A DNA stretch of 64,000 bases, from NCBI GenBank assembly GCA_964620965.1, contig CAZUHV010000003.1, forward strand, positions 226,093 to 290,092, in the 5' to 3' direction. The stretch is from an uncultured Pseudomonadales bacterium (GTDB lineage: Bacteria > Patescibacteriota > Microgenomatia > UBA1400 > PJMF01). The translations under genes were made by a program, and so were the position numbers. Of the stretch, positions 5,083 through 51,261 are shown one piece after another; positions within the stretch are counted from its first letter, which is position 1, and every line of letters starts with the position of its first letter. Under the pieces are notes generated by a model. The model had not been told where the DNA came from. It ran no database searches and saw only the letters and a program-made list of their open reading frames with translations.

Positions 5083-6419
5083 CAGAAGGCATAGGATTAT
5101 CATTTTTTTCTTTGGTTTCGTTGTTTGTTTTGGCAGTTGTGTATTTTTTTCTTATCTCTGAAAAACTAAATAAGGTTATTGTCTCAATTTTAGGAGCAGT
5201 ATTTTTGATTATGATGCAGGTGTTTAAGACTGCTGGAGCATCATCACAAGAAAATGCGTTTCAATTTATTGGACATAATCTTGATATTTTGGGATTCGTG
5301 ATAGGAATGATGGTTCTAATTGGGATTGTGAGAGAATCAGGGTTTTTTGAAGCGCTCGCAATTTGGTTGGTTCGTGCGGTTAAGGGGAACCCAAAATTTT
5401 TATTGATTGTTGTTGGGTATTTAACGCTATTCATGACAGCATTTTTCTCTAATATCCCTACAGTTTTAATTTTAACTCCAGTTTTAGTGGTGCTTATTAG
5501 ATCATTGAAGCTCCCATTTTTACCTTACTTTTTTACTCTGGTCGTTATGGCAAATCTTGGTGGGGCAATGACGCCAATTTCTGATCCAACAACTTATTAC
5601 CAAGCAAAAACAGTTGGGTTAAGTTTTTTTGAGGTTATTAGTAATTCTGGACTCATAGTTTTACTGCTCTCGGTTGTTTCGTTGTCATACATTTTACTTG
5701 TTTTTAAGAAACAACTAGAGAAAGTTACTGTAAAAGCAAGTGATGTTGCTGCATTTAAACCACAGGCTGCAATTAAAGACAAACGCATACTCTTTAGAGG
5801 AATGCCAATATTGCTCGTTATTATTTTGCTCATGATTTTTAAAGAGTTTATTTCTAAAACATTTGGAATTGGCTTGGACAACGCAACGCTTACTCTAGGC
5901 GGTTCATTCTTGGCTATGATGATTTTTCATAGAAATCCAAAAGTTGTTTTTAGGGATTTAATTGATTGGGAAATTATCTTTTTCTTCATGGGATTATTTG
6001 TGGTTGTGGGAGCGCTAGAATTTACCAGTTTGATTGATATTTTGGCAGTAGAATTGGTGAAAATTGCCAATGGAAGTGTGCCAATTTTACTTTTCTTTAC
6101 TTCTGTAGGTTCAAGTTTGATTTCAACATTTATAGATAACGTTCCCTACAACATTACTATGGTTGGAGCCATTCAGGCTATGGAAAAAGCTGGTATTGCT
6201 GTATATCCACTTTGGTGGGCTCTTAATTTAGGAACATCTATCGGTGGTTTTGGATCTCCAATTGCAGCAGCATGTAATGTGATAGTGTTTGGGCAAGCAG
6301 AAAAAGAAGAATGGAAGACAACATTCTTTTCGTACCTAAAGTTAGCAATTCCACTGATACTTATAAACAGTATTATCACTTTTGCTTTCTTGTGGGTACG
6401 GTATTTTTATTTAGTATAA
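5079..6419 (+). CDS. ArsB/NhaD (citrate transporter-like) family permease
   Basis: 446 aa polytopic membrane protein with the characteristic duplicated hydrophobic halves. GAGGA SD upstream of the ATG. The start overlaps the CBS gene stop (ATGA), which suggests translational coupling. Confidence 0.6.
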   Translation: MTEGIGLSFFSLVSLFVLAVVYFFLISEKLNKVIVSILGAVFLIMMQVFKTAGASSQENAFQFIGHNLDILGFVIGMMVLIGIVRESGFFEALAIWLVRAVKGNPKFLLIVVGYLTLFMTAFFSNIPTVLILTPVLVVLIRSLKLPFLPYFFTLVVMANLGGAMTPISDPTTYYQAKTVGLSFFEVISNSGLIVLLLSVVSLSYILLVFKKQLEKVTVKASDVAAFKPQAAIKDKRILFRGMPILLVIILLMIFKEFISKTFGIGLDNATLTLGGSFLAMMIFHRNPKVVFRDLIDWEIIFFFMGLFVVVGALEFTSLIDILAVELVKIANGSVPILLFFTSVGSSLISTFIDNVPYNITMVGAIQAMEKAGIAVYPLWWALNLGTSIGGFGSPIAAACNVIVFGQAEKEEWKTTFFSYLKLAIPLILINSIITFAFLWVRYFYLV

Positions 6420-9824: not shown

Positions 9825-11117
9825 ATGAAAAACCTATTTAAAAAAGAAAATCAAACATTCAAACTCGATATGAGCCACATCAATAAAGTTGCAATGGTTT
9901 TACTGTTCCTCTTTATCGGTGCATTTGCAGAATATAAATTTCAATTTTTAAATAGATACTCCAGAATTAGTTCGACTGCAATTCAAAGTGGAGAAGGTAC
10001 AGAGTTATCAAAGCTCATTAAAAGTTCTAATCCAGATGATAAAAAAGATGTAGATTTTTCAATTTTTTGGGAAGTTTGGAATCTTCTTGAAAGAGATTAT
10101 GTGTATCCAGAGAAACTTGATGCAACAAAAATGGTTGATGGAGCAATTAGTGGTTTAGCATCATCTGTTGAAGATCCATACACAATGTATTTGCCAAAAG
10201 AAGCAAACGAAAGAAGTGCTCAAGATTTAGCTGGTGCTTTCTATGGGGTTGGTATAGAACTTGGATATAATAAAGAGGGTATTTTAACAGCAGTGTCTCC
10301 TTTAGAAGGTACGCCAGCATTCGAAGCTGGTGTTCAGGCGGGCGACATGATTATCAATGTCAAAGATGAAGCAAAAGGTATTGACGAAGATAGTTCTCAG
10401 TGGCCATTAAACAAGGCTGTTGACGCAATTAGGGGGCCAAAAGGTACTCCAGTCATTCTTACCTTATACAGAGAAGGTGTTCAAGCACCATTTGATGTTT
10501 CTATTAATCGTGGTGAGATTGTTGTTAAGTCTGTTACTTTAGAGTTTGTTGAGTATGCTGGTAAAAGAGTTGCACATTTGAAAGTCTCGCGCTTTGGAGA
10601 AAGAACAGACGCAGAATGGAACGATGCTGTAACAGAAATTATTTCTCAAAAAAATTCAATTAATGGAATCATTCTTGATATGAGAAACAATCCAGGTGGC
10701 TTCTTTGATGGAGCAATCAACATTGCAAGTGACTTCGTAGATCAAGGAACAGTTGTGTCTCAAAAAGATAGACTTTTCAAACAAGATTTTGCAGCACGAG
10801 GAAAAGCACGTTTAGCGGGAATTCCTGTTGAAGTGCTGGTGAACAAAGGTTCAGCCTCTGCATCAGAAATTGTTGCGGGTGCACTGCGTGACAGAATTGG
10901 TGCAAAACTAGTTGGTACTAAAACCTTTGGAAAAGGTACTGTTCAAGACAGACGAGAACTTTCTAATGGAGCAGGTATTCATATAACTGTCGCACGTTGG
11001 ATGCTTCCTGGTGGAGATTGGATTCACGAAGAAGGTATTCCAGTTGATGTTGAAATAGAGTCTAATCCAGAGACAGAAGAAGACGTTCAGCTGCATAAAG
11101 CAATTGAGGTTCTTTAG
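9825..11117 (+). CDS. ctpA: Carboxyl-terminal processing protease (S41 peptidase with PDZ domain)
   Basis: N-terminal membrane anchor, PDZ region (GVGIELGYNKEGILTAVSPLEGTPAFEAGVQAGDMII) and S41 catalytic motifs (ILDMRNNPGG...NKGSASASEI). Confidence 0.85.
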   Translation: MKNLFKKENQTFKLDMSHINKVAMVLLFLFIGAFAEYKFQFLNRYSRISSTAIQSGEGTELSKLIKSSNPDDKKDVDFSIFWEVWNLLERDYVYPEKLDATKMVDGAISGLASSVEDPYTMYLPKEANERSAQDLAGAFYGVGIELGYNKEGILTAVSPLEGTPAFEAGVQAGDMIINVKDEAKGIDEDSSQWPLNKAVDAIRGPKGTPVILTLYREGVQAPFDVSINRGEIVVKSVTLEFVEYAGKRVAHLKVSRFGERTDAEWNDAVTEIISQKNSINGIILDMRNNPGGFFDGAINIASDFVDQGTVVSQKDRLFKQDFAARGKARLAGIPVEVLVNKGSASASEIVAGALRDRIGAKLVGTKTFGKGTVQDRRELSNGAGIHITVARWMLPGGDWIHEEGIPVDVEIESNPETEEDVQLHKAIEVL

Positions 11118-44841: not shown

Positions 44842-45609
44842 ATGAGGCGTAGAGAAAAATTTGTTGTTGCATCAATTATTTCAACACTTGGTTTACTTGG
44901 TGTGCAGTATGTTACTCTAGATATTAGATATATCGCAATCGCGATTTTTGTTGTGTTTACTTATCTTATTTCTACTTGGGCGCTTGCTGATGACTTGCAG
45001 CTACACGAGAGGGTGACTATAATTCCATTTCCGTCTTTATTTGCCGCAGCTGTATCTTTGTTTTATTTCTTATTACCTGAAAGCTTTTTTTCACAATTAG
45101 TGATAGTTTTGTTATTTGGTGTTGGCATGTATGCGATTTATTTAACGGCAAACATTTTTTCTGTAGCAAAAGGTAGAACAATTCAGCTAGTACATGCGGC
45201 TAACGCCATAGCAGGTATTTTTGGTGTTTTTATTTCTTTGCTACTGTCTAATACAATTTTTTCCTTAAAATTACCGTTTTATTTTAATATGTTGCTTGTT
45301 GGTTTGGTTCATTTTCCTCTGGTATTTATGTTGCTTTGGTCGGTGAATTTAGAAAACAGAGTTGAACGTGACATCATAGGTTTTTCGCTTGTTTTAACCT
45401 TAGTCTTGATGGAGCTTGCACTTATTTTGTCATTTTTTCCTTTGGGAGTCTGGTTTTATGCCTTGTTTATTATGTCATTTTTCTATATCGGGATTGGTTT
45501 AATGCAGAGCTTTATCAGAGGCAGACTCTTTGTTCGTACTCTGGTGGAGTACTCTTTAGTAGCCATTTTTATTGGCTTGATGTTTTTGGGCGCAGTTCCA
45601 TTTAAGTAG
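44842..45609 (+). CDS. Integral membrane protein, hypothetical
   Basis: 255 aa with about 8 hydrophobic helices and no motif. Confidence 0.45.
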   Translation: MRRREKFVVASIISTLGLLGVQYVTLDIRYIAIAIFVVFTYLISTWALADDLQLHERVTIIPFPSLFAAAVSLFYFLLPESFFSQLVIVLLFGVGMYAIYLTANIFSVAKGRTIQLVHAANAIAGIFGVFISLLLSNTIFSLKLPFYFNMLLVGLVHFPLVFMLLWSVNLENRVERDIIGFSLVLTLVLMELALILSFFPLGVWFYALFIMSFFYIGIGLMQSFIRGRLFVRTLVEYSLVAIFIGLMFLGAVPFK

Positions 45610-45934
45610 GGTTTTCTTTATTTTCTAATATAGCTTCTTCTGTAGGCTAAAACTTATTGTTTTTGAAAGTTTTTATCAGGAGAAGAGAATAGTAAGCCTG
45701 GTAGGGCCTAATAACATCCTATAATATGTGAGGAGTAGACAGGGGTAGTTTAGCCTGTTTGCTCCTGGAAAAGCATAGTGGAATTAAAAGTTGTAAATCT
45801 TGAGGATCTTCAGTATGGTCTTGAAATATTTTATATTTAAATAAAATTTACACGATAAAACAAGAATTTTTAAAGAAAAACTAGAGAAGAGGGGTCAAAA
45901 ATTTTTTATATGTACCAGGCGGAGAAGGGAGAAG

Positions 45935-45974
45935 TGATATAGTTTGATACAGTATAAATGATATAGTTTGATAT
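45935..45974 (+). repeat. Iteron-like direct repeat: TGATATAGTTTGATA(C/T) twice, with 24-bp spacing
   Basis: 16-nt copies at 45935-45950 and 45959-45974 inside the non-coding part of the accessory segment. A perfect DnaA box (TGTGGATAA = TTATCCACA on the complement) lies 22 bp downstream at 45996-46004. Confidence 0.5.
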
Positions 45975-46939
45975 AGAGTAGAGGCCTATAATAAATGTGG
46001 ATAACTTTAAACTTATAGGACTTATTTATTAAACATTTAGCCTGGTATAAAGGGCGAGAAATGTATTTTTTGTTTTAAGCTTTCAGGAATATGCAAGAAT
46101 AATTTTGAGCCTCAAGCCTGGTGGTGGAGAGTGTTCTGTTTCAGACATATATGCCTGGAATTTTTTATTTCTAGGTGTGTCGTGAAAAGAGTGTGAAAAA
46201 GAATAAAACCCGAATGTGTTTTTCGGCATATTGAGTAAAAAAAGTCATTTTTGCGAGAGACCCAAGAGAGGTAATTTTGCCAGAGTACACAGAGAGCTAA
46301 AAGGGACGAGCACTACTGTTCTTAGTACAGTGATGTACCATGTATTTCAAAAATGCAATGAGCCACAACCGTCTCATTCTCTCTTTGTGAGTGGGGTATG
46401 ATTTTTCGATTTGCATTATGTCGCACAATATTACTTTTACGACGTAAACTAAAATTTTAAGATTGGAGTAGTTTTAGCAGTTCTTTTATTATTTCTCTAT
46501 ATATCCGGGCAATTTTTAGTATTTATTTATTTTTATTCTTTTTTTATCTTTTTAATTCTCTGTTTGCTTGTCTCTCATATAATTTATTTTTTTGCGATTT
46601 TCACTATTATCGTTTTCTTAAATTTTGGAAACTTTATGATTTTTTCTTGTGAGTTTGTCAATCTATTTATTAACTATGTTTTGATTGCATTTGAGGCTAT
46701 TTGAGCCTCTTAAAACCGGTTTTTTAATGAATACTAAGCCGTTTGTACAATAAAAAGCCGTTTTTGAGCCTCTGACATGTTTTAGCCTGGTAGACTTGTT
46801 AATTTTGGTGATTTTGGCGTTAAAATGAGTATTTTTAAACGGTTTTAGTAAAATTTCTTTCAATGTGTAGTAAAAAATGCTTTCTAACTATTTTTTTGTG
46901 GTACAATCCTTTAAAACTTTTAAAAAAGGAGTTTTTGAT

Positions 46940-47389
46940 ATGCAACTGACACATAGTTTAGAAACTGGCGAAAAAAGAAATTTTAACGAGGTGCGAACTT
47001 GTGAACGAAGAAATCTTTTGGCAAGAAGGCTTGATAAGCAATCAGGAAGATTCAAGCGTATGTGGGCTTTGCATAAGGAGCATTTAAGGCTTAGAAATAT
47101 AAATGAAGCTCAGGAACAAAAGGAATTAGTTTTCGATTCTTTATATGAATTTTTAATTCAGGTTTATGACGCTGGTTTATTGATTTATCCAGAAGTAAAT
47201 ATGGAGTTTGCGGACAACTTTACTGAAGATCTCTTCGCCTGGTTTGCACTCACTTTAGGTTTAATTGAGCAGGATGAAATTGCAGAGATGGCTGGGTATA
47301 TTACTCGAAAAATTGAGGAAACTATTCCAGGCAATCTTGTTGTTGCGGATTTAGGGTTATCTTCTACAACCATTGTAAATTTGAATTAA
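46940..47389 (+). CDS. Hypothetical protein (150 aa) with a basic N-terminus and acidic C-terminal half, island-encoded
   Basis: AGGAG SD 8 nt upstream of the ATG at 46940. No recognisable domain. Confidence 0.5.
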   Translation: MQLTHSLETGEKRNFNEVRTCERRNLLARRLDKQSGRFKRMWALHKEHLRLRNINEAQEQKELVFDSLYEFLIQVYDAGLLIYPEVNMEFADNFTEDLFAWFALTLGLIEQDEIAEMAGYITRKIEETIPGNLVVADLGLSSTTIVNLN

Positions 47390-47601
47390 CTTTTAACTAG
47401 ACTTTTTTGTGTCGCAAAATAATTTTACATTTTCCTCCAAAAAGCTTTAAAGGTTGTTTTTTTCTGTAATTAATTGGAGCCTTGATTTTAGGACTCTTAC
47501 TTAAGGACTCCCCTCTTATACTGCTGGGGGAGAGATCAAGTAAAATTTAGAATTCATTATATTTATGAAAAATCTATCTGAAAGAGTAAGGTCTTCTATA
47601 G

Positions 47602-47934
47602 TTATAGCTCCTGAAGTTTCGAAAGATATTTTTCAACAAGTTCCTCAAAGATCGCTTTGAAAGTTTTTTGGAAGGAACTCCCCTCCTTTGATAAAAGTGA
47701 GTTTATTTTAGTATTGAATGTTTCAAGATCTGTTTCTGACTCGATATTCTGAATTTCTGCAGGAATATCCTCAGATTTGAATTGTTCTTCCATGTTTTCC
47801 GGCTTGGTAATTTCTAAAGCTTGCATTAAGGCGGATGAAATGAGCATAGATAATCCTAGTTGGATGTCTTTTTGGTCAATACCTTTTTCTGTTGCTATTT
47901 CTTGTATACTAGTGAGGTTTTGTTGAATGTTCAT
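47602..47934 (-). CDS. Small acidic helical hypothetical protein (110 aa), second gene of a two-gene minus-strand cassette
   Basis: Follows the upstream gene after a 7-nt gap, which fits an operon. Highly acidic and predicted alpha-helical. Confidence 0.5.
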   Translation of the reverse strand: MNIQQNLTSIQEIATEKGIDQKDIQLGLSMLISSALMQALEITKPENMEEQFKSEDIPAEIQNIESETDLETFNTKINSLLSKEGSSFQKTFKAIFEELVEKYLSKLQEL

Positions 47935-47941
47935 AGGTTTT

Positions 47942-48394
47942 TTAATTAATATTTGTTACCTGATTTATTAGATGTGGAATAAAGCTGGCTCCCATTGAAT
48001 GACCCATCATAACGATTTGATAGGTTGCATACCATAATGCTGCTCTAGCTACGTACCTTGTTTTATCATGGTTCTTAAAGAATATTCCAGGAAGTACCCA
48101 TCCTGCTGCCGCGCCAAAAATTCCAATGAGTCCTGGTAGTCCCCAAATTTCTATATTGTGCAGTAGCTCTCTTAATTTTTCACCAAGAGTTCCAATGTCT
48201 ACTCCAGGAATTGGTTCACCAAGCTTATTAATTTGGTTAAACATTCCTGCTAAAAACATTGCACTGAGTTGCTTTGAATGATGTTCTGGTAAGACATCTA
48301 GAGCTGCTTGAACAGCCGCAGGAATGTTTGCTTCAACCTCTAAGTTATCAGTTGTTTCATTTAAATTTGTTAGGTCTGTAAATTCTCTATTCAT
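47942..48394 (-). CDS. Hypothetical protein (150 aa) with a glycine-zipper-like membrane segment (GLPGLIGIFGAAAGWVLPGIFF)
   Basis: Soluble N-terminal region, then a GxxxG-rich hydrophobic helix, then a Trp/Tyr/His/Met-rich C-terminus. First gene of the cassette. Confidence 0.5.
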   Translation of the reverse strand: MNREFTDLTNLNETTDNLEVEANIPAAVQAALDVLPEHHSKQLSAMFLAGMFNQINKLGEPIPGVDIGTLGEKLRELLHNIEIWGLPGLIGIFGAAAGWVLPGIFFKNHDKTRYVARAALWYATYQIVMMGHSMGASFIPHLINQVTNIN

Positions 48395-48775
48395 GTTTTC
48401 AGTGTATCACATTTTTACAAATTTTATTTTATGTCGCAAAAAAATAATGTATTTGCTATACTGCTTCTTAGTAATTGATTTTTTGTTCCTTAAAAATACT
48501 TTGAAGTAGAAGCAGAGTTTGAAACTATAGTTGCATAGCGCTCTACTCTATTCTTATAAAAAATAAAGTTGCTTAAAGATTTTGTAAAGTCCTTTTTTTA
48601 AAATAAATATATACTAAGTATATCAAAGTATATCTAAATATATATAATAAAAAGCATTGATTTAGCAACATTTATTGTTTTAAACACAAATTAGCAGTAT
48701 TTACTATTGTCTGCTAAAAACTCATAGTATTTTGTCATATAAAAAATCATATAGTCGAGGTGAAATATATACTTT

Positions 48776-49711
48776 ATGGCACTTTCAACAAATCCTCACA
48801 AGGCTTTATTGACTTTTGTAGAACATTTAGAAGTTGAGCGTAATGTAAGCCGTTTAACAATTCGAAATTACTCTCATTATTTGAGACGTTTTAACGATTG
48901 GTTTTTAAATGAAGGTCACAAAGATTTAAAAGAATTGGACCAAGATATTGTAAGAAGTTATCGTGTATATTTGTCACGATTTGTTGATGATGTTGGAAGA
49001 ACTTTGTCAAAAAAAACTCAAAGTTATTACATCATTGCGCTTCGTTCTTTGCTCAAATTTATGGTAAAAAATGATGCTCCAGTTTTGCATCCAGAAAAAA
49101 TTGATTTGCCAAAAGCAGAATCTCAACACATGAAATTTTTGAATTTGGAACGTATTGAAAGACTCCTCAATCAGCCGCTACTTTCACAAAAAGGTGGGCT
49201 TCGTGATAAAGCAATTTTGGAAGTTTTATTTTCGACAGGCTTGCGTGTCAGTGAATTAGTTGGATTGAATCGTGATCAAATCGATATTGAAAAACGCGAG
49301 TTTGGAGTGATTGGTAAAGGTCGTAGACCACGTGTAGTTTTTCTGAGTGAACGTGCTGCATATTGGTTAGATAAGTATATGAACTCTCGTTCTGATAATT
49401 GGGACCCTGTGTTTATTAGATATTCTGGAACCAAGCCGGAGCTTTTGGCCGATGGTGAAGAGATGCGTTTAACTACTAGAAGTGTGCAACGCTTGGTAGA
49501 CAAGTATTGTAGAAAAGCAAAATTGCCAATCAAGATTAGCCCTCATGGTATTAGACATAGTTTTGCCACTGATTTATTGAGTAATGGAGCTTCGCTAAGA
49601 GATGTTCAAGAGATGTTGGGACACAAAAATATTGCTACAACGCAGATTTACACCCATGTCACCAGGCCAGAATTAAGAAAATCTCACGAAAAACACCATT
49701 CTGGGTTATAG
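48776..49711 (+). CDS. Tyrosine site-specific recombinase (XerC/XerD / phage-integrase family)
   Basis: N-terminal core-binding (SAM-like) domain and a C-terminal catalytic domain with R...HxxR...Y (GLRVSEL; HGIRHSFATDLL; TTQIYTHV). GAGGTGA SD upstream. Confidence 0.85.
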   Translation: MALSTNPHKALLTFVEHLEVERNVSRLTIRNYSHYLRRFNDWFLNEGHKDLKELDQDIVRSYRVYLSRFVDDVGRTLSKKTQSYYIIALRSLLKFMVKNDAPVLHPEKIDLPKAESQHMKFLNLERIERLLNQPLLSQKGGLRDKAILEVLFSTGLRVSELVGLNRDQIDIEKREFGVIGKGRRPRVVFLSERAAYWLDKYMNSRSDNWDPVFIRYSGTKPELLADGEEMRLTTRSVQRLVDKYCRKAKLPIKISPHGIRHSFATDLLSNGASLRDVQEMLGHKNIATTQIYTHVTRPELRKSHEKHHSGL

Positions 49712-50036
49712 ATTTGTTAAGATTTGAGACAGTTTATTTGTTTTGTTGATTTTTTATGAGTGTGTTTTTTGGAAGATTCGCTTTTTTTAATTAATTCCAG
49801 AAAATAGTTCTTCTTCTTTTAGATCTTTATCTATATCAAAAAGTAAATTAAGATATAAAAATATATAGGATTTTAACCTAAATTAGCACTTTTAGCCTGG
49901 ATTTCTCCCCTTCTCTGCTGTGCTTTGGGTTAAATTGTTAGTGATATACTTTAAATTATTATTTGCTATTTTGATATATAGTTATGGGATTTTAAGATGA
50001 GAGCTTTGCAAGAATAAAATGGTTAAAAGGGTTTTT

Positions 50037-50059
50037 CCCCCGCACATTTAGTGCGGGGG
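50037..50059. other. Perfect 9-bp GC-rich inverted repeat (CCCCCGCAC-attta-GTGCGGGGG), a terminator or protein-binding hairpin
   Basis: Lies between the recombinase gene and the small peptide gene. Weak T-run (gttttct) on the plus side. Confidence 0.5.
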
Positions 50060-50076
50060 AAGTTTTCTAAAAAAGA

Positions 50077-50196
50077 TTAGTTACCAGCTTGTGCGAGGAC
50101 TTGTGCTACAGCTATACCAAGAGGTATAACCACAACAACAACTACGACCAGGCAAACAAACATGGCAACTGCAGCTTTGGCTATAAAAGTACCCAT
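50077..50196 (-). CDS. 39-aa ultra-hydrophobic single-TM peptide (MGTFIAKAAVAMFVCLVVVVVVVIPLGIAVAQVLAQAGN), a candidate small membrane toxin or small membrane protein
   Basis: Strong AAGGTGA SD 5 nt upstream of the ATG. Not in the ORF track because it is below the 60-aa threshold. Followed on the minus strand by the GC hairpin. Confidence 0.45.
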   Translation of the reverse strand: MGTFIAKAAVAMFVCLVVVVVVVIPLGIAVAQVLAQAGN

Positions 50197-50484
50197 TGCA
50201 ATCACCTTTTTTTTGAATTTCTCCAAGAATTACGCTTTCGCCACTCGGAGTGAAGTTATCTCTATTTGATATTCGGATCGCGTAGACCCGACATCCTCAT
50301 AGAGATGCTCAAAAAACCAGACTTTAGTTTCTTAAGGATCTCTATGCAAGAAGCTCTGTTAATGTGCAATTAAAACTACTTTATCAGTAATTATGAGACA
50401 TATCAATAGTTTTTTGCTTAAATGTGGGTCTCTCCTCGTTGTGTTTTTGAGGCAACTTGGGTAACATATGCAGTATACAGAAAT

Positions 50485-50558
50485 GGGCCTGTAGCGCAGC
50501 TGGTTAGCGCGTTTGTATGGCATACAAAAGGTCAGGGGTTCGAATCCCCTCAGGTCCA
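50485..50558 (+). tRNA. tRNA-Ala (anticodon GGC)
   Basis: Hand-folded cloverleaf: acceptor GGGCCTG/CAGGTCC with the G3:U70 pair characteristic of tRNA-Ala, D-arm GCGC-AGCTGGTTA-GCGC, anticodon stem TTTGT/ACAAA with loop ATGGCAT (GGC), T-arm AGGGG-TTCGAAT-CCCCT and discriminator A. Confidence 0.85.
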
Positions 50559-50705
50559 CAAAAATTTTTTGATATAAAATACTTGAATTTCTTCAAAAGT
50601 CTTTTGATTACTCTTGCGTTTTCTTTGAGGTTTACTCTTTGATAAGAGTGGCTTATGTGGACTTGTTTGTTATTTATTGCAAAAAAAGGTATTTAAATGG
50701 CAAAA

Positions 50706-51000: not shown

Positions 51001-51261
51001 TTTTTCACCCTTATAATTAGATATAGATTTTGTTGACAAAATTCCCCAAGAGGGGGTGAATAATCAAATTAGCTGATCTAATGGGCATGGGAAAAGTCGC
51101 GTTGACTTTCTTATCCCTCTAGGGCCTTTTTAATTATTCGCTACTCCTGGAGATCTGTTCAATTTTTAATGTGCTTTGCATTCTTTCAAATGTAACTAAA
51201 TTATCCTATAATATGATAATTTTGTCAATGATTAAAAGGCTAAATCGTAGTAATATCATAG

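Follow-up and report, generated by a model that had tools for sequence, protein, structure and literature searches.

The window analysed here is a stretch of 64 kb (positions 226,093 to 290,092 of contig CAZUHV010000003.1) from a genome assigned to the Microgenomatia. It carries a gene for a XerC/D-family tyrosine recombinase (xer, 48776-49711, + strand), and the initial annotation of the DNA had noticed three families of short repeated motifs in the non-coding DNA upstream of this gene. They were attributed to an island and read as operator, arm-type recombinase or partition/iteron binding sites. Our analysis shows that the finding is real and goes beyond chance repeats: the motifs mark a class-wide, xer-linked, dif-like region with one-armed sites and a small cassette hotspot, and not an island with arm-type or iteron sites. 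We put at roughly 0.55 the probability that they make up the conserved recombination and control region of a housekeeping XerC/D-family recombinase, that is, a genetically linked xer/dif-like module. The window was compared with related loci from other genomes, which carry L-numbers (L003, L004 and so on) and were available as 21-kb pieces.

A dif-like 28-bp site upstream of xer

The initial annotation had overlooked that the TGTCGCA copy at 46419 is one half of a 28-bp palindrome (46418-46445, + strand). This core site consists of a left arm ATGTCGCACAA (46418-46428), the centre TATTAC (46429-46434) and a right arm TTTTACGACGT (46435-46445). The arms mirror each other at 10 of 11 positions and the 6-bp centre is asymmetric, which gives an 11-6-11 geometry. 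An alignment of 61 loci yielded the consensus ATGTCGYACAA-TAWWAC-TTTTRCGACRT, with a conserved block sharply bounded at 28-29 bp and unconserved flanks. All four Y/R combinations were found at the sole degenerate mirrored arm position of this alignment, as would suit two protein half-sites but not an RNA stem on either strand.

The core was present between the DUF5656 gene and xer in 61 of the 80 genome loci. When the window was scanned with a position weight matrix (PWM) built from the site, the core was the sole full match (50.7 bits). An exact-pattern scan of metagenome contigs found the site in more than 120 contigs, with a single copy in each, and no copy occurred in 1.1 Mb of locus flanks. 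The neighbourhood was analysed for the first 80 of these contigs. The xer gene lay downstream of the core in 37 of the 39 contigs with at least 3 kb of downstream sequence and was co-oriented with it in all 53 cases, at a distance of 229-5534 bp (median 1077 bp). DUF5656 was carried by each of the 37 contigs with at least 2 kb upstream of the core. In site length, inverted 11-bp arms, centre, lineage-wide conservation and linkage to xer the core agrees with a dif site. No description of dif or of Xer-site usage was found for bacteria of the candidate phyla radiation (CPR) in the literature searched and, as far as this literature goes, the dif-like site is new for the group.

The recombinase has 311 amino acid residues (aa) and its catalytic motifs are intact. 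It matched the Pfam family Phage_integrase at 1.9e-40 and, in NCBIfam, the models XerD (241.3 bits), XerC (241.1 bits) and XerA (210 bits), all under the equivalog cut-offs. The protein was aligned end to end with E. coli XerD (4.7e-41) with conservation of LRVSE, GKG, HxxR, GH and IYTH. The catalytic set R-K-H-R-H-Y is complete, the protein belongs to the XerC/D/A family, and it has no arm-binding N-domain. Relatives with 60-94% identity were found in at least 80 species-level Patescibacteria genomes, and these share the gene order TGT, LytR_C, TPR, YebC, DUF5656, a gap (1 kb or more), Xer, (tRNA-Ala), GyrA, DHH and GyrB. The degree of conservation is similar to that of gyrase; in L082, for example, the identity is 61% for Xer, 53% for GyrA and 58% for GyrB.

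Many of these genomes, compact elsewhere, have ~1 kb or more without open reading frames (ORFs) between DUF5656 and xer, and this gap holds blocks that are still detected by blastn at ~90% identity in distant members. The non-coding module measures ~1.2 kb and is found upstream of the housekeeping xer gene throughout a large CPR/Microgenomates group of ultra-small bacteria. When homologous recombinases in other genomes were checked for the motifs, as the initial annotation had proposed, the motif-bearing block was seen upstream of xer throughout the Microgenomates. The sole variable stretch lies between an element at 46752-46793 and the half-site next to xer, both of which are described below. 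Judged by its gyrase-level conservation and fixed synteny, the recombinase can be regarded as a housekeeping, vertically inherited chromosomal Xer and its setting not as a mobile island. The premise of an island did not hold, and the motif-bearing non-coding block is itself conserved.

The DUF5656 membrane-protein gene (44842-45609) and the gene of the YebC family are linked to the non-coding module as tightly as xer, in 37 of 37 contigs with enough upstream sequence.

In the mechanism that we propose, the 28-bp site would be the core, bound by one Xer monomer per 11-bp arm, and strand exchange would take place at the edges of TATTAC. On balance we expect Xer to be the protein that acts on the TGTCGCA sites.

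One-armed sites near xer and the variable cassette zone

The two other copies of the TGTCGCA family have one arm only. Half-site S2, GTGTCGCAAAA (47409-47419, + strand), scored 17.0 with the right-arm PWM and half-site S3, ATGTCGCAAAA (48431-48441, + strand), scored 19.8. In 70 related loci, 60 one-armed matches were counted in 142 kb of DUF5656-xer gaps versus 11 in 1110 kb of flanks. The half-sites cluster by xer and not by the yebC promoter, and they are mostly direct repeats. A -10-like TATACT facing xer (48457-48462) follows S3 at a distance of 15 nt. S3 is also 36-38 nt upstream of a divergent 150-aa ORF on the minus strand (47942-48394), in agreement with the 38 nt claimed previously between the copy at 48432 and the start codon of this ORF. 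The arrangement ATGTCGCACAA-N15-17-(TGTG)TATACT is that of the window clade, with S3 of the window and L003-L007, and a half-site-N-TGTGTATACT arrangement is conserved in L003-L007. Many loci of the Gottesman-, Levy- and Woesebacteria types have ATGTCGCACAAT-NN-TTGACA upstream of xer.

The one-armed copies at 47409 and 48431 would each bind a single monomer. The xer-proximal half-site overlaps the promoter-like element facing xer, and Xer probably controls the transcription of its own gene and of the divergent ORFs in this way. A monomer bound on or beside the -35 region would constitute a simple loop of self-regulation. In L048 (~5479-5530) and L184, tandem half-sites (ATGTCGCAAAA followed by ATGTCGCACAA) stand 23 bp apart directly before the TTGACA -35 region of xer, which suggests cooperative occupancy by two monomers.

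The half-sites also coincide with the borders of a zone of variable DNA. In four comparisons (window clade, L089/L109, L150/L157 and L110/L157) the homology between close relatives ended right after the element at 46752-46793 or its counterpart. Because the homology stops directly after it, this element can be taken as the left border of the variable zone, with the half-site as its right border. The cargo between the borders measures ~0.1-5 kb and is unrelated from locus to locus, 82 of 93 ORFs being singletons. It includes ORFans, a GDSL lipase, BacA, an AP-endonuclease-like protein, an IS200-like transposase and a LytR_C protein. The gene of the IS200-like (Y1_Tnp) transposase was seen in L063 (7629-8342), where it is part of the cargo, with the full site on one side and the xer-proximal half-site on the other.

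In the window the first cargo is an ORF of 149 aa ('p150', 46940-47389, + strand), without family matches in Pfam, PHROG, NCBIfam or PADLOC. This protein, given as 150 aa, had been suggested as a binder of the motifs; its relatives, with 39-46% identity, occur only in L003 and L004, 2 of the 80 related loci, whereas the motifs are class-wide, and it is not a candidate for the cognate binder. The second cargo consists of two ORFs of 110 and 150 aa (47602-48394, - strand) in the 1022-bp segment between S2 and S3. L003 and L004, the nearest relatives, have a single site and lack this segment with its two ORFs. The outer flanks of S2 and S3 are homologous to the flanks of that single site, the left flank of S2 to its left flank. 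Independently, in the close pairs L048/L184 and L089/L109, DNA that is extra or non-homologous stops 0-2 bp from the outer edge of a half-site. The label 'toxin-like' for the second cargo could not be retained: Pfam, PHROGs, NCBIfam and PADLOC gave no match for a toxin or defence function, and 47942-48394 is an ORFan, whose product matched only one of 5.8 billion proteins, a 96% strain variant in which the arrangement is identical.

Since the one-armed sites mark the exact right border of the hyper-variable zone, they are probably also used as recombination junctions, at least occasionally. The locus does not qualify as an integron: the integron-integrase models matched only the C-terminal 60-65 residues of Xer, with 108 and 55 bits compared to cut-offs of 265 and 435, and no attC-like palindromes of 60-140 bp were seen.

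L011 and L019 have, shortly before xer (~9949-9977), a second full-length site that is degenerate and inverted. Between this site and the main one lie ~470 bp with a half-site and a copy of the 46752-type element, both inverted, a layout as expected of an invertible segment.

Repeated words in the flanks of the core

The three motif families are present at the coordinates listed by the initial annotation, each well beyond chance as judged by shuffling. Family 1, TTTGAGCCTC, occurs at 46104, 46700 and 46763, all on the + strand (3 exact copies, 0.21 expected; 3 copies were reached in 0 of 100 shuffles). Family 2, AGCCTGGTR, occurs at 45695, 46039, 46115 and 46784 (4 copies, 0.41 expected; 0 of 100 shuffles), and family 3, RTGTCGCAMAA, at 46418, 47409 and 48431 (3 copies, 0.18 expected; 0 of 100 shuffles). 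The exception is a partial copy that had been placed at 49884-49890 and is actually AGCCTGG at 49894-49900, 10 nt away. No further exact copies of TTTGAGCCTC, AGCCTGGTR or RTGTCGCAMAA were found in the 64-kb window. Families 1 and 2 are variants of a single word, TTKAGCCT(S). TTKAGCCT has 14 copies in the window compared to 5.8 expected, and 7 of the 14 lie within 45644-46788 (1.15 kb). Additional locus-specific words had been missed, namely TGATATAGTTTGATA (two copies), TGTGGATAAC, TTATAGGAC, ATGCAAGAATAA and AAAACCCGAATG. The earlier view that the motifs are functional, conserved DNA elements instead of random AT-rich sequence is supported by these results.

An unbiased comparison of 8-mers between the DUF5656-xer gaps and the flanks of 70 loci showed which words are enriched in the gaps. 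The highest values were obtained for TATAGGAC (52x) and TGTCGCAC (49x), followed by AACCCGAA, CGTGAAAA and GATATAGT (28x each), TTAGCCTG (20x), TAGCCTGG (17x), AGCCTGGT (12x) and TTTGAGGC (8x). The words stand in a fixed order. On the left it runs from the GATA repeats through TGTGGAWAAC, TTATAGGAC, (TAGCCTGG), ATGCAAGAATAA and AAACCCGAA to the 28-bp site; on the right, the site is followed by a T-rich spacer, AAAAAGCCGWTTTTGRGSC...TTTTAGCCTGGT, the cargo, the half-site and xer.

The conserved left block opens with two direct copies of TGATATAGTTTGATA 24 bp apart (45935-45949 and 45959-45973, + strand). They read as an extended -10-like TGATATAGT plus TTGATA and are invariant in a 24-locus alignment. 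TGATATAGT has only these two exact copies in the window, and TCCTATAAT and TGATATAGT are restricted to this locus within the window. An interpretation of both as generic promoter motifs was rejected, as the words are confined to this locus. The block continues with TGTGGATAAC (45997-46006, + strand), which contains the sole local perfect DnaA-box 9-mer, and TTATAGGAC (46013-46021, + strand); TGTGGAWAAC and TTATAGGAC are invariant or nearly so in the same alignment. A family 2 copy follows in TTTAGCCTGGTA (46036-46047, + strand), with a complementary ACCAGGC at 45912-45918. TAGCCTGG was found in both orientations across loci; a fixed -35-type spacing of TAGCCTGG to TGATATAGT fits the left block and not the other copies and was dropped.

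Further downstream in the block are ATGCAAGAATAA (46091-46102, + strand) and the abutting copies of families 1 and 2, TTTGAGCCTC-A-AGCCTGGTG (46104-46123, + strand). The word GCAAGAATAA of this stretch (46091-46123) is conserved. The (A/T/G)TG-CRR-GAA-TAA word seen at 46091-46102, at 50006-50018 and in many loci is conserved and reads as a three-codon mini-ORF (M-Q/R-E/K-stop) whose start codon varies. In many cases it directly adjoins AAAACCCGAAT, and it may be a mini-ORF or a DNA or RNA word. The final conserved words of the left block are CGTGAAAAG-AG-TGTGAAAAAG and then AAAACCCGAATG (46181-46216, + strand), whose position before the 28-bp site is conserved. A search of the left block for small conserved peptides found none beyond the effect of nucleotide conservation within clades.

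On the right of the core, an AT-rich spacer (46450-46690) is T-rich on the + strand, with a T-A skew of 0.0 to 0.48. Its T-richness holds in 44 loci regardless of the orientation of the next element. The GAGGCT-ATTTG-AGCCTC hairpin described by the initial annotation was confirmed at 46693-46709, with the 46700 copy of family 1, and the palindrome AAAACCGGTTTT at 46712-46723; the two together (46693-46723, + strand) are conserved only in the closest relative, L003. The element at 46752-46793 ('B3-F2', + strand), AAAAAGCCGTTTTTGAGCCTC-tgacatg-TTTTAGCCTGGTAG, combines families 1 and 2 and is the last conserved sequence before the cassette zone. It was found in 44 loci, 160-440 bp from the core and in either orientation, and is the sole widely conserved copy of families 1 and 2. 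Beyond the cassette zone, an inverted copy of the TGATATAnTTTGATA word (48618-48634, - strand) lies ~140 bp upstream of xer, a position shared by at least 9 relatives.

The conserved sequences on either side of the core, which measure ~480 bp (left) and ~350 bp (right), may serve as its accessory or regulatory arms, by analogy with other Xer and integrase sites. Within them the TTKAGCCT(S) words would bind accessory or regulatory proteins in the manner of cer/psi or attP arms, or carry locus-specific promoters. Our confidence about the role of the TTKAGCCT words is low.

Sequences downstream of xer

A mini-block made of the same words, TTTAGCCTGG, GTGATATAC and GCAAGAATAA, was found downstream of xer (49891-50066, + strand). 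It ends in a strong intrinsic terminator (50034-50062), the stem of which differs from that in L003 (~11200) by compensatory changes, CCCCCGCAC/GTGCGGGGG versus GCCCCCTGAC/GTCAGGGGGC. A 49-aa ORF (50077-50226, - strand) converges on the terminator; its product is almost wholly hydrophobic (…VCLVVVVVVVIPLGIAVAQVLAQAGN) and has no family matches. The gene for tRNA-Ala(GGC) (50485-50559) lies 770 bp downstream of xer and is a conserved feature of Pacebacteria-type loci. It was on the opposite strand in 5 of 23 loci (L008, L011, L013, L017 and L020), and therefore the xer-gyrA stretch also undergoes inversions. An additional pair of locus-type words was seen in the spacer by the 3' end of gyrA, outside the main cluster (51200-51245), with ATCCTATAAT at 51203 and, on the minus strand, TTTAGCCT at 51237.

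Many contigs with a Patescibacteria-type locus (L004, L006, L015, L053, L060 and others) are labelled 'uncultured Pseudomonadales', 'Gammaproteobacteria', 'candidate division TM6' or 'Bathyarchaeia' and appear to be mislabelled public records.

Evaluation of the xer/dif-like module and of other explanations

Several results weigh against a xer/dif-like module. The GC skew at four-fold sites was positive on the + strand to the left (+0.14, +0.29) and to the right (+0.12, +0.52) of the locus, so that the position is not that of a terminus, and in four contigs of ~1 Mb the locus was 85-160 kb from the contig end. To our knowledge, every characterised chromosomal dif differs from the site in this off-terminus position. 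It is the chief obstacle to regarding the 28-bp site as a classical dif, with which the site agrees in sequence, geometry and linkage and, within the window, contigs and flanks scanned, in uniqueness. Viral contigs gave no match to the 28-bp site. Within a genome, the bases after the arm of a half-site do not follow those at the centre of the full site, which suits operators that are only bound better than sites that recombine with each other. Among 185 oriented loci, 17 close pairs showed no inverted high-scoring segment pairs and no inversion or excision polymorphism. Because the central bases are untracked and the close pairs lack such polymorphism, the sequence data reach no further than binding-only operators with occasional recombination. 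Finally, the TTTGAGCCTC copies at 46104 and 46700 are conserved at most in the closest relative.

It is unlikely that the left block (~45935-46400) is the gene for an unclassified non-coding RNA of ~400 nt, the words being RNA elements and the 28-bp palindrome merely lying beside its 3' end, as att sites do with tRNA or tmRNA genes. Short invariant islands in a fixed order with spacers of variable length would suit such a gene, and so would a region without a conserved ORF or peptide and a related mini-unit downstream of xer with a terminator, marked by compensatory changes, at its end. TTGATA-N16-18-TGTGG-AWAACT has the geometry of a promoter in many loci, and many Pacebacteria have a G/A-rich hairpin with a T-run 40-60 nt before the 28-bp site. 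These promoter-like and terminator-like features are compatible with an unstructured transcript. The evidence for a structured RNA is weak, however. Rfam returned only tRNAs at the gathering threshold in the window and in 12 relatives, and at E values up to 10 on 45400-50600, and ARAGORN found no tmRNA in the window or in 34 loci. The z-scores of the minimum free energy were just -0.4 to -1.0 with similar values on both strands; single-sequence folding of 45993-46420 gave -1.0 on the + and +0.64 on the - strand, and segment-wise folding in 33 loci gave means of -0.4 to -0.8 with both strands alike. RNAalifold energies were weak in four clades, with no helix set common to them, and TAGCCTGG occurs in both orientations. 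A long-range ACCAGGC/GCCTGGT helix enclosing the GATA-BOX words looked covariation-like in a few loci, but was rejected as pairing within a locus was no better than pairing between loci (p = 0.69). Slightly less probable again is that the TGTCGCA palindrome and the half-sites are operators of a conventional transcription factor (perhaps the YebC-family protein encoded nearby, or one encoded elsewhere), with no action of Xer. The promoter positions of the half-sites, the dissimilarity of their downstream bases to the full-site centre, the off-terminus locus and the tight linkage of YebC and DUF5656 to the site (37/37 contigs) would all be explained by this. Against it stand the 11-6-11 layout with a conserved asymmetric 6-bp centre, which is the design of a tyrosine-recombinase core site, the orientation of the site fixed relative to xer (53/53 contigs), the half-sites within 0-2 bp of non-homologous DNA breakpoints and their clustering by xer instead of the yebC promoter.

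We consider it very improbable that the locus is a mobile island or prophage remnant, as framed by the initial annotation, with the recombinase as its integrase and the motifs as att or arm-type sites. In its favour, a tRNA-Ala gene lies 770 bp downstream of the recombinase gene, with ORFan cargo nearby and a slightly low GC content. The recombinase, the non-coding block and the tRNA are nevertheless syntenic in 80 species-level genomes with Xer identities of 60-94%, the variation is confined to ~0.1-5 kb between two borders, no phage contig matches the site, and the recombinase aligns over its full length to XerD without having an arm-binding N-domain. The TGTCGCA sites are moreover core-type arms, as seen in the 11-6-11 palindrome and the one-armed copies, and not arm-type sites. 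Least probable of all is a replication origin, terminus or partition locus with iterons, DnaA boxes or parS as motifs. The large, conserved, ORF-free and AT-rich region by gyrBA, its perfect DnaA box (45996-46004) and the direct repeats 24 bp apart would be in line with it. Yet DnaA boxes were not enriched (18 versus 19.6 expected) and this box is the only one in the region. No parS was found, the window proteins tested did not include a dnaA product, the genes are on the + strand on both sides of the locus, and neither the four-fold-site skew nor the bulk GC skew switches across it. On DnaA boxes, parS, skew and gene strands an oriC, terminus or partition locus was rejected, and with no sign of a switch in replication direction the partition/iteron part of the earlier binding-site interpretation fell together with the arm-type part. 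The part that stands is that TGTCGCAMAA is best explained as recombinase-binding and operator sites.

Comparison with known Xer systems

Genetic linkage of xer and dif is a stated hallmark of the single-recombinase systems XerS and XerH (PMC5357621). Like XerS/difSL of streptococci and lactococci and XerH/difH of Helicobacter and Campylobacter, the locus studied here has a dif-like palindrome of near symmetry in genetic linkage with xer. Its two arms are almost the same, as they would be if a single recombinase bound both, the site is unique in the 64-kb window and in the contigs scanned, and the recombinase is conserved and chromosomal. In contrast to these systems, the protein is of the XerC/D/XerA type, not of the XerS or XerH type, with 311 aa and equal XerC and XerD scores; its XerS match reached an E value of 1.6e-35 only. 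The site has a different sequence in the classical 11-6-11 layout, it is separated from xer by 0.2-5.5 kb and has conserved blocks on both sides, and the locus is off the terminus. With the likeness resting on linkage and arms as known from the 64-kb window and the 21-kb pieces of the relatives, the locus may be filed as a variant of the single-recombinase xer/dif module.

The plasmid resolution sites cer and psi consist of a Xer core and ~180 bp of accessory sequence. As in cer/psi and in lambda attP, the short core described here is flanked by hundreds of bp of conserved, ordered and orientation-fixed words, and by this analogy a cer/attP-like site could work independently of its chromosomal position. 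Unlike those sites it is chromosomal and class-wide and has longer flanks (~480 and ~350 bp, left and right). No motifs of the ArgR, PepA, ArcA or IHF type were recognised in it, and the accessory role of the flanks is our inference.

Several short sites beside a tyrosine recombinase gene are also known from the R64 shufflon, with the sfx sites for Rci, and from Xer1/vpma-type phase-variation loci in mycoplasmas. For the Xer1 type, a case in Ureaplasma has been cited (PMC3599477). The resemblance lies in the one conserved arm of these sites and in adjacent segments that take either orientation among genomes, such as the 46752-type element and the tRNA-Ala gene. The half-sites here, in contrast, are mostly direct and not inverted, a paralogous family to shuffle is absent, and no inversion within a population was detected (17 close pairs).

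Variable genes beside a Xer site, bracketed by sites with one conserved and one degenerate arm, are a feature shared with the integrative mobile elements exploiting Xer (IMEX; CTX-phi, TLC-phi and the gonococcal genetic island, GGI) and with the pdif/dif modules of Acinetobacter (PMC5357621). When the locus was tested for this type, the S2-S3 cassette was found missing in L003 and L004 and the breakpoints of two other pairs lay at half-site edges; the sites are one-armed, with central bases unlike the full site. Unlike IMEX and pdif modules, the cargo is tiny (0.1-5 kb), consists mostly of ORFans or ordinary genes and lacks functions of phages or of conjugation. The cassettes are adjacent to one-armed sites near xer instead of the full site, and no free or extrachromosomal form was seen among viral contigs.

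Implications

A broader scheme, which we regard as speculative and rather doubtful, would combine these features. The Microgenomates would have a so far undescribed, class-wide Xer module in which a single housekeeping Xer acts at an off-terminus 28-bp core with long accessory arms, cer/attP-like and independent of position. One-armed, sfx-like sites would serve the same recombinase for self-regulation and for the capture or exchange of small ORFan cassettes beside the xer gene. Such a module would amount to a minimal integron-like acquisition platform on the dimer-resolution machinery.

CPR bacteria make up a large share of bacterial diversity, and we know of no mechanism described for the resolution of chromosome dimers in them. 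The 28-bp site, tightly linked to xer, is a directly testable candidate. A chromosomal dif must, as a rule, lie in the terminus zone controlled by FtsK; if the site works off the terminus, this rule would be questioned. The cassette zone with its sharp borders, the half-site and the TTKAGCCT element, would be a defined hotspot for the uptake of lineage-specific genes in reduced genomes. The conserved, ORF-free block of ~1 kb provides an annotation landmark in genomes that are otherwise nearly without intergenic DNA.

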